This document shows, piece by piece, positions 19,946 to 28,180 of a stretch of DNA of 64,000 bases (positions are counted from its first letter, which is position 1; each line of letters begins with the position of its first letter). The notes below the pieces were generated by a model, which was not told the DNA's origin, searched no databases, and saw only the letters and a program-made list of their open reading frames with translations. A program made the translations under genes and the position numbers. Origin of the DNA: Neophaeotheca triangularis (Eukaryota); assembly GCA_054600435.1 (NCBI GenBank), contig BAAIJX010000018.1, positions 124,001 to 188,000 of the forward strand. Direction: 5' to 3'.

Positions 19946-20031
19946 TGCGGGTGCCAGGATTCGAACCTGGGCTTCCTCGGAATCATCTTAAAGACCACAA
20001 CGAGACGTATTAACCCCTTTACCACACCCGC
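19946..20031 (-). tRNA. tRNA-His(GTG) with 14-nt intron
   Basis: Acceptor stem GCGGGTG/CACCCGC-A, anticodon arm TCTCG-TT-GTG-G[intron 19981-19994]C-CGAGG, T-arm CCAGG-TTCGAAT-CCTGG. Confidence 0.93.
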
Positions 20032-20855
20032 CAGCGTGAATTAGATCTACCGAGTAATCGGCCTTATTGTCTATATTGAGTTGTCAAGCAGAAAGGGCTG
20101 AGAGAAAAACGACAAAACTATGGGCGGGGGAATGCATTGTTGATCTCGCGCAGTTTTTCTTTCTCTTTTTCTTTTTGTCTTTTTTTGTTTTCAATATTTT
20201 GACGCTTGACTTAACGAGGTGGCACCTGTGGGCTCTTGCCTGCCGGTTCTGACTAGCGTAGTTGCCCATTTCATCCGCTTCCTGGTCCGTGGGTCCAATT
20301 CTCCCTTCACGTGGAATCTCCCGATTTGTCCACCTCCGTTCAATCAATCAATACTGCCACATTATTGCTCCCGAACATCTCATTCCCTCGTCACGGCATC
20401 AGGTGCTGCATTCTCAACATACGCCTGCTCGCCTTCCCGGCGAGCTTCCATTTCGAGTTCATGCAACTTGCATCATCTCTAACCCCCGTGTGCCCTTCTG
20501 TCACGGCGTCTCGTTCCCATGCGGGGACAAGACCAGCAATTGAGCCCTGCGACCCTGTTTCAATGACTGTGGGCCACAAATCTAGGATCGCCGGTTGACC
20601 AAGAGCAGCAGCCTTTGCCGAATGGCCACTTGCTTGCATTCCATGCTCAGGTGTGCGATGACCGCAGATATCCGCTGTTGCCATGCCCGCCCAAGCAAAG
20701 GGAAAGAGAGAGGCGCGCTCTCGGACTGACGTCTGTCGCTTGACGCGCCGTCTCGAAGGTCCTCAACCACACTCTCCTGCCCGAACGAGGCAGCCTCCTA
20801 CGCTTTTGAAAGCGTACCTTGTTGTGTATGATATTCCTTTCCCGATTTCCCCTTT

Positions 20856-21938
20856 TCACCCTCCGCTAGATCGTGACCCGCTAGACTCCCCTTGCTTTGC
20901 CAAGCTCCCGCTCCTCCTCCCCATCCTCAAAGCCGCATGCAAATCCAAGTGTTCCGGGTCGCCACTCTTGCTCCAATCCCGGTGCAGAGTGCCGTGATCT
21001 TGCAGTCGCATGTTCTGCGCCGTGATGAAGTCATCCTCAGCCCTCTGTCTCTGAGCCTGCCGCACATCCACAAAATCACCGCGGAAGCCGTCCGACCCGA
21101 GTGTCCCCATACGCTCTAGCTTGTGTTGCTTTAACTTGTCAAGTGCCGTCTTGAAATCGTCAAGGATGATGGTGTCTGTGAGGCACTTGAAGACGAAGGC
21201 AAGCTTCCAAAAAGGATTGACGCCATTTGGGAGATCGGGGTTGGAGAAGGCGTGGGTAACGGCGCAGATGTCAACGATGATGAATCCGAAGCTTACGATC
21301 ATGGACCCCAAAAGTACACCAAACCGCGGTGACACGCGCATGAGCTCCAGAAACCCAAATTCATAACGGGTCTTGATGTTGTACAGTAGATTGCAAATGG
21401 TGAAGATCCACCACGGATCGCGAAACAATGCTTCGTAGGGCCTCGTGTAGCGGAAGAGGTCCGATTTGCCAGAAAAGTAAAGAAAGTTGGCGACTATCTC
21501 CAGGACCCAGTATGGCTGGACGAGCGCCACGGTGGTGATATAGAAGATGCTGGTTTTCCTGCCCAAGAACGGTTTGTTCTTGATCCAGGCAATAACGTTG
21601 TGCAAGCTCCAACTAATGTTGAGCAGAATGGCGGTGGTAGATAGATACCAGTTGTAAACGGGTGGATCAGTGAAGATGAAAGTGCCGTGAAAACAGCCAA
21701 AAAGCAGCTCGACGAGAATCAATTTATGCAAGAGCACGCCACGGCGCATGTTTGCCAGAGTCAGGACGGCCATGATGATCAGGCTCCCGATCATGTAGCC
21801 CTGTGCCCAAGCCTCGATGATTGCGCCGTCGACGGTGTTTGGTTTTCCAACGTCGAAGACATGCCCGCTGCCGCTTTGGCGCGGCTCCAGCGTGACATGT
21901 TCTGGCAGTCCGGCGGAATACAGGGAAGGGGGCGGCAT
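20856..21938 (-). CDS. Fungal multi-pass integral membrane protein of unknown function
   Basis: Uninterrupted ORF from MPPPSLYS with about 6-7 hydrophobic segments (GYMIGSLIIMAVLTLA, LLFGCFHGTFIF, PWWIFTICNLLY, FWKLAFVFKCLTD) and a polar tail. Confidence 0.8.
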   Translation of the reverse strand: MPPPSLYSAGLPEHVTLEPRQSGSGHVFDVGKPNTVDGAIIEAWAQGYMIGSLIIMAVLTLANMRRGVLLHKLILVELLFGCFHGTFIFTDPPVYNWYLSTTAILLNISWSLHNVIAWIKNKPFLGRKTSIFYITTVALVQPYWVLEIVANFLYFSGKSDLFRYTRPYEALFRDPWWIFTICNLLYNIKTRYEFGFLELMRVSPRFGVLLGSMIVSFGFIIVDICAVTHAFSNPDLPNGVNPFWKLAFVFKCLTDTIILDDFKTALDKLKQHKLERMGTLGSDGFRGDFVDVRQAQRQRAEDDFITAQNMRLQDHGTLHRDWSKSGDPEHLDLHAALRMGRRSGSLAKQGESSGSRSSGG

Positions 21939-22270
21939 GGCTGCTTGGGGGCAGCCTGGAGAGGTCTTGACTCGGCCAGATTTACTGGCTGACTGCCGAG
22001 ACACCCTGTAGCATCGCGATTCCAATGTCGCGAGCGCAAGGGAGAGAGGGAGCGAGATGGAAGGTGGTAGTGACAGATTATTAGTAGTAGCAAGTACTGT
22101 AGTTAACGAGAATGAAAACGACCTCGGGAGAGCACGAGGCAAAAGATTGAAGAAAGTGATGAGAGCATGAAATGATGATGATAATAATAAGGGCTAATAA
22201 GGGCCTGTTCGCAAGGTCACCCGTCGACGCCTTCTTCCTCCGACCTTTGCTCGCCCACGCCCCACCCCAT

Positions 22271-22285
22271 TACTACTACTAGTAG

Positions 22286-22317
<32 letters not shown>

Positions 22318-22318
22318 G
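22271..22318. repeat. (TAC)n/(TAG) microsatellite
   Basis: tactactactagtagtactactactactac... Confidence 0.8.
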
Positions 22319-22840
22319 CCTAGCCCGAGCCTTCTTTCCGCAGGCCATCATGGCAGGCCCACGCGGTGCACGCCGTCCCGCCGTCCATATGTGCCCGTTT
22401 AGCCGTGCGGTCAAGTAATAACAACAAAACGTCGACGTCGACCTGGGTTAAATTAACAAATTGGCAGCTTTGGTGGATGCTCGGTGGATGCTAGTGGCAA
22501 TTTGGCCCACGGGGCTTTTAACCGTCTTAGTACTAGCACTGTAGCCGTGCGGCCCGGCTTGTTCCTCCGGCAGATGCTACCTACAGTACTACTAGTAGTA
22601 CTACTAGTAGTACCTAGGTATCTTTCTTCCTCCGTCACGTGCTCAGTCTGATCATTACTCAGCAGCAGCACCGTGTGAGGTCGTTCTATCAACCATTTCT
22701 TCCTGCCCGTCCTCTCCCTTCCCCCTTCCCCTCTCCACGCTCCCATTCTCTCTCATCCACAGCGGGGGGAGGCACGGCCGTGTCAAATTGTCCAGTTGCG
22801 CCAACAGTCCAACACGGCCCACGGGTTCTTAGCAGTGGCA

Positions 22841-22855
22841 TCTATCAAGGTGCTC
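22841..22855 (+). promoter_or_regulatory. Putative ZafA/Zap1 zinc-response motif 1 (TCTATCAAGGTGCTC)
   Basis: 15/15 match to the A. fumigatus ZafA consensus DYYVYCARGGTVYYY (consensus quoted from memory), about 200 bp upstream of the rps29 variant ATG. Confidence 0.7.
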
Positions 22856-22912
22856 CGTTTGCCTCCTTCATACACGTGACCATGGTTGTAGAACAAATGA
22901 GGTGCCTGGCCA

Positions 22913-22927
22913 GCCATCAAGGTGCTG
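22913..22927 (+). promoter_or_regulatory. Putative ZafA/Zap1 zinc-response motif 2 (GCCATCAAGGTGCTG)
   Basis: 14/15 match to the same consensus. It shares the 11-mer ATCAAGGTGCT with motif 1, and a TATATA follows at 22939-22944. Confidence 0.65.
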
Positions 22928-23045
22928 CCAAAGGTGTGTATATACACACACGGTAAGGATTCTTTTCTGGACACCCCCCCCTCTTCCCTCCCACATCCAC
23001 GACACCGACAAGTAAAAACATCACGCCCAAGCAAGACTCTCCACC

Positions 23046-23330
23046 ATGTCGCATGAAAATGTCTGGTACTCGCATCCACGCACATACGGCAAAGGCTCCC
23101 GGGGCTGGTAAGGCGGCCAGGATATTCGGTCACCAGGAAAGACACAGACTTACATCGCCCTAGCCGAGTGACGGGAGACAAGAAGAAAGCTGGTGTGATC
23201 CGCAAGTACGGCTTGAACATGTCGCGCCAGGCGTTCCGAGAGAAGGCTGAGGATATCGGATTCAAGAAGGTAGGATGCAACCAGAGCGTTTCCTACGGTA
23301 CGCGACTGACAGCCCATGAAGTTGCGATAG
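23046..23330 (+). CDS. RPS29: 40S ribosomal protein uS14/S29, Cys-depleted (putative zinc-independent) variant
   Basis: Exons 23046-23107, 23164-23269 and 23322-23330 (an alternative in-frame acceptor would start exon 3 at 23313). Translation: [58 protein letters not shown]. It has a CCACC-ATG context and GTAAGG/GTAGGA donors, and is absent from the ORF track. Confidence 0.92.
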
Positions 23331-24527
23331 ATGATGATTAGTAGAGCCAATCGATACATGGAATGAATGGTCTTTCGACAAGGAACATCGGGGTCGCCGA
23401 TCCTACTCGAACATGGAAGTGCCATGTGCTTTTGTGAGATTGCGTATCTTGCACAGAATTTGGTCAGCAGGAGGCACGTACAGGATGTCGACGTGGCTGG
23501 GCTGTTTGCTTGAATGCAGTCAGCAGATACCTACAGTAGGCATCTGAATGCCAAGGGAGATGCATACGTACCTTAGTGACTTTATCCTGTCACGCTTTTC
23601 CACCCATTCATCCATTGTTTCTGTGCTCATGTCGTTCGGCTCGGCTTGCCAGTCACGCTCAATAGGTAAGGTAATGTACCTACTCCATGTCCTGTATGCG
23701 AATGTGACGAGAATAGTTCATTTTGGCATGCGAGTGTGACGATGATCTTCAACACCACCCGTTGCCGGAACCTTGTAATACGGCATTAATATCATTATCA
23801 TTATCATATAACAAGGCGGCAACAGCCACCACAATCACAACCACAACCTAGTCTACAAGTACCTAACGCTGTCACTAACAGTCAACTTGCTCACGCTTGA
23901 GTCTAGACTCTAGACGCCTCCAGGGCTGTCTAAAGGACGTTGGTCGTTCTTTAACACCTCAATACAGCCACCTCGTATCGCCAGCTCTATTATAAGCAGA
24001 CTATAGCACGGCAAAATATTTCTTCCATTCGTTGACCTCCAAAGCCTGGCGAACGGCTCTCTTCTTTTCCACTTTCTGCAGACCCAGGCACAGGCAGGCC
24101 GACGCCGACGTAGATCAGCCTCGTTTTAACCTCCCAGGACACCCGCCGCTTACTGCATGTATGCACCGGAACTTCTGTCTAAAGCACGTCTGATGGACCA
24201 TCAGCATTGTGGCCGTCTGCTGGCACGGGTCCTTGTTACGCTCAGACCTGGTTTGCGTGAAGCGGCAAAACGACCACATCGAGGTCAATCATACAAGTGG
24301 GCACGCTATCGGAATGCAGTTATCATGGCCGTGCTCGATGCCGTCAGGTAGGCTTGCGTGAAACTCGTATTGGAGTTTTATTTGGCTTTTTCTTGCCTGG
24401 TTGCTACTCTTCCAAGGTTGTATATTAACCGCAATGGCTACCACAAAGATTCAAACATTCATTGACTCGAACCGCATTGGCCTAAACCGACACAATTCAT
24501 ACTCTCTTTTGGATCACCTGCATCGCT

Positions 24528-25646
24528 ATGGTCGTCTTCAAATCCCTGTTCGCTGTCCTCAGCCTGTTACTACAGCATATCGTTGCGAGCCCAGTCGCTA
24601 TACCAGAAGTTGAAATCGTCGCAAACTCCCTCACCAAACGATCAATCGGAGGACCGAAGCTAGGAGGCGTCAATTTCCCTGACCCAAGCATCATCAAGGT
24701 TGGGAACGCGTGGTATGCCTTCGCCACCAGGACCAAAGGCAGCAGTGTTCACATACAGGTAGCCAAGAGCACCGATTTCGAGAGGTGGACCTTGATCAAG
24801 GACCCTGCCGGCAACCAATACGATGCTCTCCCAGACCTGCGGCAAGCTCCTTGGGTCTACCAAGAGAACCCCGGCACATGGGCACCAGATGTCAACAGAC
24901 TAGCCGACGGGACTTTTGTAATGTAACCACCACCTCTGTGAAACTTGTGCTCAAGAGCTACAACAGCTTCGAGTACCAGGGATTGACTTCGTGGGCATCA
25001 CAGGTACTACAGCGCTAGAGTCAACTCAGACAACTCCAAACACTGCATCGGCGCCGCGACCTCAACATCAGTACTGGGACCGTACATACCCCAAGGCGAC
25101 AAACCTCTCCTCTGCCCTCTGGCTCGCGGCGGCGCAATCGACGCCTCCGGCTTCAAAGACAGCAACGGCCAGCGCTACATCGCTTACAAAGCCGACGGCA
25201 ACGCTCTCAGCAGCGGCGGTCCCTGCAACGCCGTGGCCCCGTACAAACCCACGCCGTTGATCCTGCAACCCGTCGCCGCCGACGGAATCACTCTCACCGG
25301 AAGCCCGACGACACTTCTCGACAACAGCGGCGCTCCAGACCAAGGCATTGTCGAGGCACCTTCGATCGGCAAGTTTGGGGATACCTATGTCCTCTTCTTC
25401 TCTTCCGGGTGTTTTGCGACTGGCGGCTATACCGTTAATTATGCTACTTCGTCTTCTGTCACGGGTCCTTATAGGCGTGCGGCACGGCCACTGTTTCAAA
25501 CCGGCGACTACGGGTTGAAAGCGCCGGGAGGCATGGATATTGCTGCTGATGGCGGCGATCATCTGCTTTTTCACGCCAACAACAACGGCGTGAGGAGTCT
25601 GTACCAGGCTGTCATTAGTGTCAAGGGGAATGTGGTAACTGCGTGA
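24528..25646 (+). CDS. Secreted glycoside hydrolase family 43 (arabinanase/xylosidase-like five-bladed propeller)
   Basis: Signal peptide and a KR site, then NFPDPSII, WAPDV, YYSA, HCIGAATS, GGAIDASGF and VEAPSI...YVLFFSSGC; intron 24923-25003. Confidence 0.9.
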
Positions 25647-25939
25647 TGGGAGCAGAGTATTGGAGGGTGTGGCAGCGGCTTGGCTGTGGCTTGTTTCATA
25701 AATGCTTTGAAGACGAGTTCTTTTTTTTTTACCCTTCTTTTACCCCGTTTTGTTCCCCGTCTCGCCGGGACTGCAATGTTTGAGATGGACAAGAGCGAAA
25801 GATACCCCTGAAAGTTGACAAAGACTGTCCCCTTTGAATCTTTGAATAGAGACAATTGATCAGACATTTCTCATTTATCCATCTCTCCTCGCCGCAATCT
25901 CTTCGATCGCTATTGCCCCTGTCGCAAGGTCCATTCTTC

Positions 25940-28180
25940 TCAATCCCAAGCTTCAAGAGTCTTGAGCACACATCCCTCGTCCACGCGATCGACGAGCTTT
26001 CCGACTTTGTTTACTTTCTCGCCACCAGCCCTCAGCACCTCCATCGCCTTCTCCACCTTGCTCTCCTCAACCACAATCACCATACCGAGGCCGGTATTCC
26101 ACGTACGCGCAAACTCCCGGCTAGTCATACCGGCCTTGTTCTTGAGCCATCGTTGAACTTCGGGGATTTCCCAAGCCGCCACGTCCATCTCTCCTGCCAG
26201 GTGTTTCGGCAGCATCCTCGGCACGTTGTCCTCGAGTCCTCCGCCCGTGATGTGCGCCATGCCGAGCAGCAGGTCCTGTTGAATGGCTGGGAGCAGCGGC
26301 TTGACGTATATTCTCGTGGGTGTGAGTAGGCTCTTTCCGACCGTGGTGCCGTCCTTTGCCCATGGGGCCTTGTCCTGGAAAGATAAGCCAGCCTTCTCGA
26401 TGACCTTGCGCACGAGTGAGTAGCCGTTGGAGTGTAGCCCGTTGCTGCCGAGACCCAGCAGGACGTTCCCAGCTCGCATTGCTTCCTTATCAGGCAGGAC
26501 TTTCTGGCCTCTGGCAATGGCACCTGTCGCGGCGCCACCTGCGTCGAACTCCTTGTCTTGATACATGCCAGGCATCTCCGCCGTTTCGCCACCAACGAGG
26601 GCGCAGTTGGACTGTTTGCAGCCCTCCGCGACCCCTTGGACAAAGCGAACAGCATCTTGCACATTGAGCTTCGAGCATGCGTAGTAATCCATAAAGGTCA
26701 AGGGTTCAGCACCCTGAACGATCAGGTCGTTGACATTCATAGCCACGAGATCGATACCAACAGTCGAATAGTCGTCCATGGCGAAGGCAATCTTGAGTTT
26801 GGTGCCGATACCATCAATGGCTTGCACGATGATCGGGGGTTCCGAGTATCCAGCAGCTGCGAGATCCAGTGCACCGCCGAAACCGCCAATCTCGGCATCA
26901 GCACCAGGTCTCCTCGTCGACTTGACTGCTGCTTTGATAGACTGTACAAGCTCGTTCCCGGCGTCTATCGAGACACCGGCGTCTGCGTAGGTCATGCCGC
27001 TGGCGGGGGTTTTCTCCGCAGACTCCGAGACAGTGAGCCCGTCGTAAGCAGGCTCGAGGAGCTTCCACTGGCAGGTGATGTTCTCTTTCTTGAATTGATC
27101 AATAAGATGCTGAGCGATATGTTCGAAGTTTTCCGTTGCCAGAGCGAGAACGGTCGGCCCGGCTCCTGACAGACAGATACCCAACAAACCCGGGTGGGAG
27201 GTTGGCGTTACAGATTGTAGTATCTCCGTCAACCCGGGTATCAAGGTCTTTCTATACGGTTGGTGCACTCTGTCTTGCATACCATCGTAAATCATGTCGG
27301 GGTTTGGGGGGCTCTGGCCGAGGGCGGTGGTCAGTAGAGCCACTCTCTGCAGGTTGTAGATGAGATCTTTCTTCTCGTATGAAGTCGGCAAGACTTCTCG
27401 TGCTTTGGCGGTCGACACCTCGAAATCCGGGATGATGGCGATGCATTTGATTTCCTTGGCCCACGGGAAGCGAATGTGCTTGCCAATGTCAAGCGGTGGC
27501 ACTGGAGGCCGGAGACCTGTGTCTTCACCACCTTGAGGTGCGGGTAAGACCTCCGCGAGTGGGATTTCCCGACGCTTCATATCTTCCGGGTTGAGCTCCT
27601 TCAGGTACGACCCGACAAAGCCACCAAATAAAGCGGCAGCGACGTTGTCTGGATGACGCTCAATCATCAAGCAAAAGTCCAGAATGCGGTCCTTGGACAG
27701 GCCTAGCTTCCCAGCCTCATTTGCGAGCGAGACACCGGCAACTACTGCGGCGCCCGATGACCCGAGTCCTCGACCAAGTGGGATTGGGTTGACAATGTGT
27801 ACGTGCGTGTTTGGTGGGAATGCTCGTTGGTCATGACACCTCAAGACATAGAGTGCCGTTTGAGTGATGAGATTTCGGTCTGCCACCAAGGGCACATCCT
27901 CCTTTCCCAGACCGTCGTACGTGATGCGACAATTGAAGGGGGAGGCTTGCGATCCGTCTGTATCCCGGGATATCTGCACTTCGAGCCATACGGAGAGCGC
28001 AAGACCAATCACGTCGAAGCCAGGGCCTTATACGAGGTCAGCTTTGGTCTCGTCTAAAGTGAGTAGTCTCGGGCTGGCCTTCATACCTATGTTGGCAGAG
28101 GAGCATGGAACCTCTTTTCATAGTTAGCATTCCGAAAAGGCGCAAGGAAGAATGTCGTTGTACTAACTAATGGTGATCAT
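25940..28180 (-). CDS. Fused homoserine kinase (Thr1, GHMP family) and AIR synthetase (Ade7/PurM)
   Basis: MITIKVPCSSANIGPGFDVIG across two short introns, PLGRGLGSSGAA, ERHPDN and CLSGAGPT. Then, in the same exon, MTYADAGVSIDAGN, DGIGTKL, DLVAMNVND, GGETAEMPG, SNGLHSNGYSLVR and AHITGGG. Confidence 0.93.

Follow-up and report, generated by a model that had tools for sequence, protein, structure and literature searches.

A zinc-ligand-depleted uS14 (Rps29) gene of Neophaeotheca triangularis and its predicted ZafA/Zap1-type promoter motifs

The 64-kb stretch of DNA analyzed here (the window) comes from Neophaeotheca triangularis, a Dothideomycete of the order Neophaeothecales, and contains an RPS29 gene on its forward strand (Table 1). 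When the window is spliced by script, the three exons give a 177-nt coding sequence and a 58-residue uS14/Rps29 protein. Intron 2 carries a CTGAC branch-like site 13 nt 5' of its acceptor. Use of an alternative acceptor at position 23312 would yield a 61-residue protein, but this model is disfavored by the C-termini of orthologs, which read K-x-R; the 58-residue model is favored because these proteins stop two residues past the conserved Lys. An Rfam scan of window positions 20000-26000 gave no match. The full-length product is missing from a collection of 5.8 billion proteins, in which exon 2 is matched at 100% only by unspliced ORF fragments from read assemblies (P0003); the annotation of the deposited genome thus probably omits it. 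A neighboring 559-residue ORF of the Trm6/Gcd10 family is 100% identical to a named NCBI protein of N. triangularis, with the next best match at 61%. The divergent upstream ORF matches no Pfam family at E 1e-05.

Table 1. Features of the RPS29 locus and its surroundings, in window positions; the TATATA box was read from the sequence only.
Feature	Position	Strand	Description
RPS29 gene	23046..23330	+	three exons; uS14/Rps29
Exon 1	23046..23107	+	from the start codon into the one remaining Cys codon, of which it holds two bases
Intron 1	23108..23163	+	56 nt, GT..AG; splits the Cys codon TG|C
Exon 2	23164..23269	+	degraded zinc knuckles C-R-V-T ... S-R-Q-A, Lys-rich loop, conserved uS14 core
Intron 2	23270..23321	+	52 nt, GT..AG
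Exon 3	23322..23330	+	Leu-Arg-stop (TAG)
ZR motif 1	22841..22855	+	15/15 positions of the A. fumigatus ZafA consensus DYYVYCARGGTVYYY; CAAGGT core at -200 from the ATG
ZR motif 2	22913..22927	+	14/15 positions of the same consensus, mismatch at the last; CAAGGT core at -128 from the ATG
E-box CACGTG	22873..22878	.	between the two ZR motifs
TATATA box	22939..22944	+	-107 from the ATG, ahead of a pyrimidine-rich tract
Divergent upstream ORF	20856..22193	-	445 aa
GHMP-kinase/AIR-synthase frame	25940..28027	-	one 695-aa frame; GHMP-kinase N-terminal domain, then AIR-synthase N- and C-terminal domains

Membership of the encoded protein in the uS14 family is supported by several comparisons. Exon 2 alone matches PF00253 (Ribosomal_S14) with 29.2 bits, above the cut-off of 27 (E 7.7e-07), and matches the uS14 chains of solved eukaryotic ribosomes with an E value of 3.5e-09. 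The ortholog P0012 is collinear over residues 1-58 with the 56-residue uS14 chains of solved ribosomes (E 2e-24), and the window protein occupies the same columns as P0012 in the alignment. When aligned to four-Cys Rps29, the four zinc-ligand columns of the window protein read C, T, S and A, which is not the canonical four-Cys zinc ribbon but the pattern of a paralog lacking the ligands, and the loop between the two knuckles is two residues longer and rich in Lys (GDKKK). The original prediction of a cleanly spliced three-exon gene for a 58-residue Rps29, in which three of the four Cys residues are replaced (CRVT...SRQA) and the loop is extended by about two residues, is thus borne out by the scripted splicing, the PF00253 match and the alignment. 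In Venturia inaequalis, the proteins P0059 and P0065 are intermediate in that they have the loop extension of the 58-residue form and keep the first and third ligand Cys.

Among solved fungal ribosomes are some whose uS14 likewise keeps the first Cys and has the other three ligands replaced: chains 3j80_d and 5it7_d read CRIS...DRQS, and chain 9axt_Aj reads CAHT...SRQS. We take the first two chains to be from Kluyveromyces lactis and the third from Schizosaccharomyces pombe, and the protein in each case is presumably the organism's ordinary Rps29, not a second, differently regulated copy. Because solved ribosomes contain such a uS14, a one-Cys uS14 can serve in the 40S subunit, and the window Rps29 would, by analogy, sit there as well, although the single-Cys chains are 56 residues long and have no loop extension. 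Given single-Cys uS14 in two yeasts, ligand loss alone is therefore no proof of zinc regulation. Nor is ligand-depleted uS14 in fungi new as such, since single-Cys uS14 is present in these structures; pairs of zinc-coordinating and zinc-free ribosomal protein genes are also in print for a microsporidian (PMC8807834).

A profile search based on six full-length relatives retrieved 564 proteins from 598 candidates. Among the best 120 of these 564 matches, 69 have a degraded second knuckle (reading S..A in 61 of them) and 51 have four Cys. The depleted 58-residue form is annotated as S29 or S14 in many Dothideomycetes, including Mycosphaerellales, Pleosporales, Botryosphaeriales, Venturia and others, and it occurs also in Diaporthe species, a Xylariales species and Exophiala spinifera; no depleted form from Aspergillus is found in the best 120 of the 564 matches. 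Substitution rates were estimated by NG86 over 53 codons in 19 lineages, comprising 18 metagenome loci and the window, with L032 and L044 left out for indels, L042 and L043 for an exon 2 truncated by the end of the contig, and L046 as a different type. Across the 154 usable pairs of 171 (the other 17 were saturated or failed), the median dN is 0.145, the median dS 1.289 and the median dN/dS 0.111, with a maximum of 0.333. The window RPS29 is under purifying selection, and a dN/dS of 0.11 at a dS above 1 speaks strongly against a pseudogene.

The depleted form and the canonical four-Cys 56-residue Rps29 are found together in at least eight named species: Salinomyces thailandicus, Paraphaeosphaeria minitans, P. 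sporulosa, Parastagonospora nodorum, Zopfia rhizophila, Pyrenophora tritici-repentis, Hortaea werneckii and Pseudocercospora musae, the last with two locus tags of the same prefix. This count is a lower bound because it was drawn from the best 120 of the 564 matches, and the absence of either form of a species from that sample does not mean that the species lacks it. For N. triangularis itself, the search covered the 64-kb window, in which tblastn with the spliced protein found no second RPS29 copy, four-Cys or otherwise; a Neophaeotheca four-Cys S29 is likewise missing among the at most 40 members listed per protein cluster, which says little. Across six of the eight species, four-Cys proteins share 94.4% identity on average in pairwise comparison and depleted ones 75.3%, and the two forms within one species are 65-74% identical.

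A maximum-likelihood tree was built from 49 hand-picked rows, namely named matches plus the window (25 depleted, 21 four-Cys and 3 of unknown origin). One branch, with a length of 0.46 changes per column and support of 99/98, splits the 21 four-Cys rows from the other 28, in a tree of 56 columns only, where the ligand columns feed into the split and the bootstrap had yet to converge. Dothideomycete four-Cys proteins therefore cluster with their counterparts from other classes instead of with their own paralogs. Yeast-like rows of unknown origin form no stable grouping, and a neighbor-joining tree (Biopython), rooted on a ligand-depleted row, is uninformative about monophyly. Moreover, both intron positions are common to the window RPS29 and the four-Cys fungal RPS29 locus L081, which fits an old DNA-level duplication of RPS29. 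As part of the interpretation that we favor below, the depleted form probably arose long ago as a paralog of the canonical four-Cys Rps29 found in filamentous ascomycetes. The original prediction had read the losses as targeted at the ligands, not as random pseudogene decay, and had suggested dN/dS, a survey of orthologs and a tree as checks; the intact frame, a dN/dS far from 1, orthologs across the Dothideomycetes and the parting of all four-Cys from all depleted rows in the maximum-likelihood tree agree with that reading. A further type, represented by L046 (P0034, P0082, P0083, P0096), comes from an intronless, AT-rich eukaryotic locus and has the second knuckle ...MSRQAF..., a different N-terminus, a C-terminus ending in LD and a long branch in the maximum-likelihood tree (1.13); it could reflect either independent ligand loss or a much older origin.

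Upstream of the window RPS29 lie two motifs that resemble fungal zinc-response elements and have the 11-mer ATCAAGGTGCT in common. ZafA of A. fumigatus is reported to bind the consensus DYYVYCARGGTVYYY, in which the CARGGT core is essential (PMC6070888), and further papers describe CAAGGT or CARGGT sites, two per target. This consensus, which stems from another class (Eurotiomycetes), is matched perfectly three times in the 64-kb window, where 0.53 matches are expected. The 8-mer ATCAAGGT is also over-represented, with 13 sites in the window, but the excess is not regulatory: the other sites examined are coding and correspond to Ile-Lys-Val/Gly codons, and raw genome-wide motif counts are therefore inflated by codon usage.

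Orthologous promoters provide a more direct comparison. Metagenome contigs yielded 46 depleted-type loci, which were kept if they had at least 300 nt of upstream sequence (dropping L014, L023, L027, L030 and L031), and promoters at least 85% identical over 150 nt were merged, leaving 24 representatives including the window. In an unbiased 8-mer scan of these promoters, ATCAAGGT ranks first: it occurs in 14 of the 24, and 56 kb of flanking sequence give a background rate of 0.028 per 400 nt. The variant ATCACGGT, whose CACGGT falls outside the CARGGT core, is present in 9 of 24. Setting aside L046, with its different N-terminus, lack of introns and AT-rich promoter, leaves 23 fungal representatives, of which 14 contain ATCAAGGT and 20 contain ATCA[AC]GGT, with all of these sites between -96 and -247 from the ATG. 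The ZafA consensus is matched with at most one mismatch in 13 of the 23 promoters (background, 5 sites in 55,874 nt) and with at most two mismatches in 17 (background, 14 sites in 55,874 nt); the remaining six have no site within two mismatches, and the L015 lineage is devoid of sites. In the promoters of several lineages, sites form an inverted pair ~55-60 nt apart.

The positions of these sites are independent of the neighboring genes, which differ between lineages; with the motif kept while the neighbors change, the element therefore goes with RPS29. Service of the motifs to the divergent upstream ORF of the window is ruled out by their constant distance to the RPS29 ATG despite different neighbors. 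P values from the script, based on the binomial, are overstated because the representative promoters share ancestry, and the persistence of the element in promoters that are otherwise unalignable is a stronger argument. As a control, the 1500 nt upstream of L081, the one fungal four-Cys promoter obtained, contain none of these cores. L081 (fungal-like) came from a search of genome contigs that also gave 79 archaeal S14 loci; viral contigs gave no four-Cys control locus, and 34 four-Cys metagenome loci (L047-L080) were of animal type and were left out of the controls. Taken in silico, the window RPS29 promoter carries predicted ZafA/Zap1-type sites, with the motifs of a zinc-sensor site and of the ZafA/Zap1 regulon. 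An E-box, mostly in the form CACGTGA, recurs 5' of or between ZR-like motifs in the promoters of L032, L036, L038, L039, L041 and L044.

A second gene carries the same element in L044 and L045, which represent one divergent fungal lineage. There, a gene for a COG0523 GTPase lies ~600 nt downstream of the depleted RPS29 on the same strand (L044:1554-3392, with the same arrangement in L045). Its product combines the Pfam domains cobW and CobW_C with Walker motifs and a GCICC motif, and has YjiA as the nearest solved relative; the promoter of the gene contains the same extended motif, CCATCAAGGTA, ~156 nt before the ATG, followed by TATAAA. Members of the COG0523 family act as zinc chaperones. 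One of their genes, mchC of A. fumigatus, is reported to be ~2600-fold up without zinc, through direct induction by ZafA (PMC12584730). Bacterial Zur regulons are described as containing both zinc-independent ribosomal paralogs and COG0523 genes (PMC2770081), an arrangement that the linkage in this one fungal lineage resembles.

We propose, with a probability of about 0.6, that the window RPS29 encodes a zinc-starvation-induced alternative uS14 under the control of a ZafA/Zap1 ortholog. When zinc is low, a ZafA/Zap1-type activator would bind the two CAAGGT-core motifs ~130 and 200 nt 5' of the ATG, and this binding would induce the depleted RPS29. The product, having lost three of four zinc ligands and gained a two-residue Lys-rich loop extension, would be a zinc-independent uS14 that takes the place of uS14 in newly made 40S subunits. 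Ribosome synthesis would then have no need of zinc at the uS14 site, sparing the metal for other proteins, and the N. triangularis genome would contain a four-Cys partner. With respect to the original prediction, which foresaw a functional zinc-independent paralog for zinc limitation, the part that concerns the gene has stood, as a real gene under purifying selection, with a four-Cys partner in eight relatives and ZafA/Zap1-type motifs; the zinc response and the role in the 40S subunit still stand as predictions.

Some observations pull in the other direction. A zinc-starvation proteome of Fonsecaea pedrosoi is reported to contain one S29, which is slightly down, at 0.82 (PMC10890210); this counts against the zinc-starvation reading, with a weight that hinges on the presence of a depleted paralog in that species. 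The reading is further weakened by the CACGGT variants outside the known core, by the promoters that have no site within two mismatches, by the lack of a zinc-related gene beside RPS29 in the window, by the use of a single control promoter and by the derivation of the consensus from another class.

One alternative is that the window gene encodes a constitutive, zinc-free housekeeping Rps29, either the sole one in its genome or co-expressed with a four-Cys form, with no zinc regulation. S. pombe is presumably a case of exactly this kind, and the single-Cys uS14 of solved ribosomes speaks for it. So does the GC3 of the window RPS29, which at 0.71 is similar to that of the other genes in the window, and the four-Cys partner of N. 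triangularis is one that we infer. Nevertheless, the eight related species keep both forms, and the protein sequence of the depleted form evolves ~4 times faster than that of the four-Cys form. Moreover, the promoter has a conserved pair of ZafA-like motifs together with a TATA box, whereas the single four-Cys control has none. On balance, we regard constitutive expression as unlikely, though far from negligible.

A different possibility is a paralog that serves a non-zinc condition, such as oxidative stress, dormancy or spore formation, with CATCA[A/C]GGT bound by a different factor. Under oxidative stress, a zinc-free uS14 has no oxidizable zinc thiolates. Many of the promoter sites have a CACGGT core, which is outside the ZafA core, and reports that Bacillus subtilis goes to zinc-independent ribosomal paralogs in sporulation (PMC11508205) and that ribosomal CxxC proteins are redox-sensitive (PMC13090322) lend this idea some precedent. 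However, CAAGGT itself is the most frequent core, its flanks agree with the ZafA consensus, and the same element stands before the COG0523 gene, whose family is tied to zinc starvation; a role outside zinc limitation thus seems quite improbable. Finally, a decaying duplicate or a by-eye splicing artefact, for which the presence of nothing but unspliced ORF fragments at 100% among public proteins might be cited, is hardly credible for a gene with an intact reading frame, two canonical introns, a dN/dS of 0.11 while dS exceeds 1, orthologs annotated as S29 in many genomes and conserved promoter elements.

Zinc-free paralogs that are swapped for zinc-binding ribosomal proteins are a textbook bacterial response to zinc starvation. 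In the bacterial C-/C+ pairs under Zur (S14, L31, L33 and L36, and the mycobacterial AltRPs), as in these fungi, one paralog has CxxC...CxxC and the other is without the ligands. The zinc-free bacterial copy is under a zinc sensor, whereas such control is predicted here. In further contrast to the bacterial pairs, the fungal paralog is a eukaryotic nuclear gene with introns, its predicted regulator is an activator of the ZafA/Zap1 type and not a repressor like Zur, and the zinc-free form is only two residues longer. Bacterial C- S14 is much longer than C+ S14. The ZafA/Zap1 regulon of Aspergillus likewise features a CARGGT core, pyrimidine-rich flanks and often two sites per promoter, and it includes a COG0523 chaperone (PMC12584730); in the searched passages of a paper on the ZafA regulon (PMC6070888), 'ribosomal protein' has 0 occurrences.

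Among eukaryotes, Encephalitozoon cuniculi, which belongs to a different lineage, likewise has zinc-coordinating and zinc-free genes for one ribosomal protein (PMC8807834). Only the zinc-coordinating isoforms were seen in its map, and the relevant text of that paper leaves the proteins unnamed and regulation unmentioned. One methods sentence there, found also in a preprint, is the nearest statement in print, describing E. cuniculi ribosomal proteins as "encoded by two alternative genes" (PMC8807834). In full-text literature searches, no account emerged of a fungal ribosomal paralog that is both zinc-free and regulated by zinc. What is new here is the pair of predicted ZafA/Zap1-type promoter motifs, their conservation across orthologs and the linkage to COG0523.

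More broadly, filamentous ascomycetes may possess an ancient ribosome-remodeling module controlled by ZafA/Zap1, in which a zinc-free uS14 paralog has existed beside the four-Cys one since before the split of Dothideomycetes, Sordariomycetes and Eurotiomycetes. In such a module, the paralog would be induced by zinc starvation and, in some lineages, linked to COG0523, making it an independent, activator-driven eukaryotic counterpart of the Zur-regulated C- proteins of bacteria; we judge the chances of this wider proposal to be about even. If zinc starvation does govern the depleted form, ribosome composition would follow zinc supply in many molds, including black yeasts and plant-associated Dothideomycetes. 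The debate over 'specialized ribosomes' would also acquire a clean test case that has its rationale in chemistry, and the fungal zinc regulon would gain a ribosomal member.

Regarding other neighbors of the depleted gene, no zinc-related gene adjoins RPS29 in the window. In the lineage represented by L021 and L022, the convergent downstream neighbor (L021:2157-2765 and L022:2784-3395, both on the minus strand) is PF05907, a eukaryotic CXXC-motif zinc-binding protein, and its presence there may be due to chance. The 695-residue frame of the window that joins GHMP-kinase and AIR-synthase domains could be either one fused gene or two neighboring genes that share a frame.
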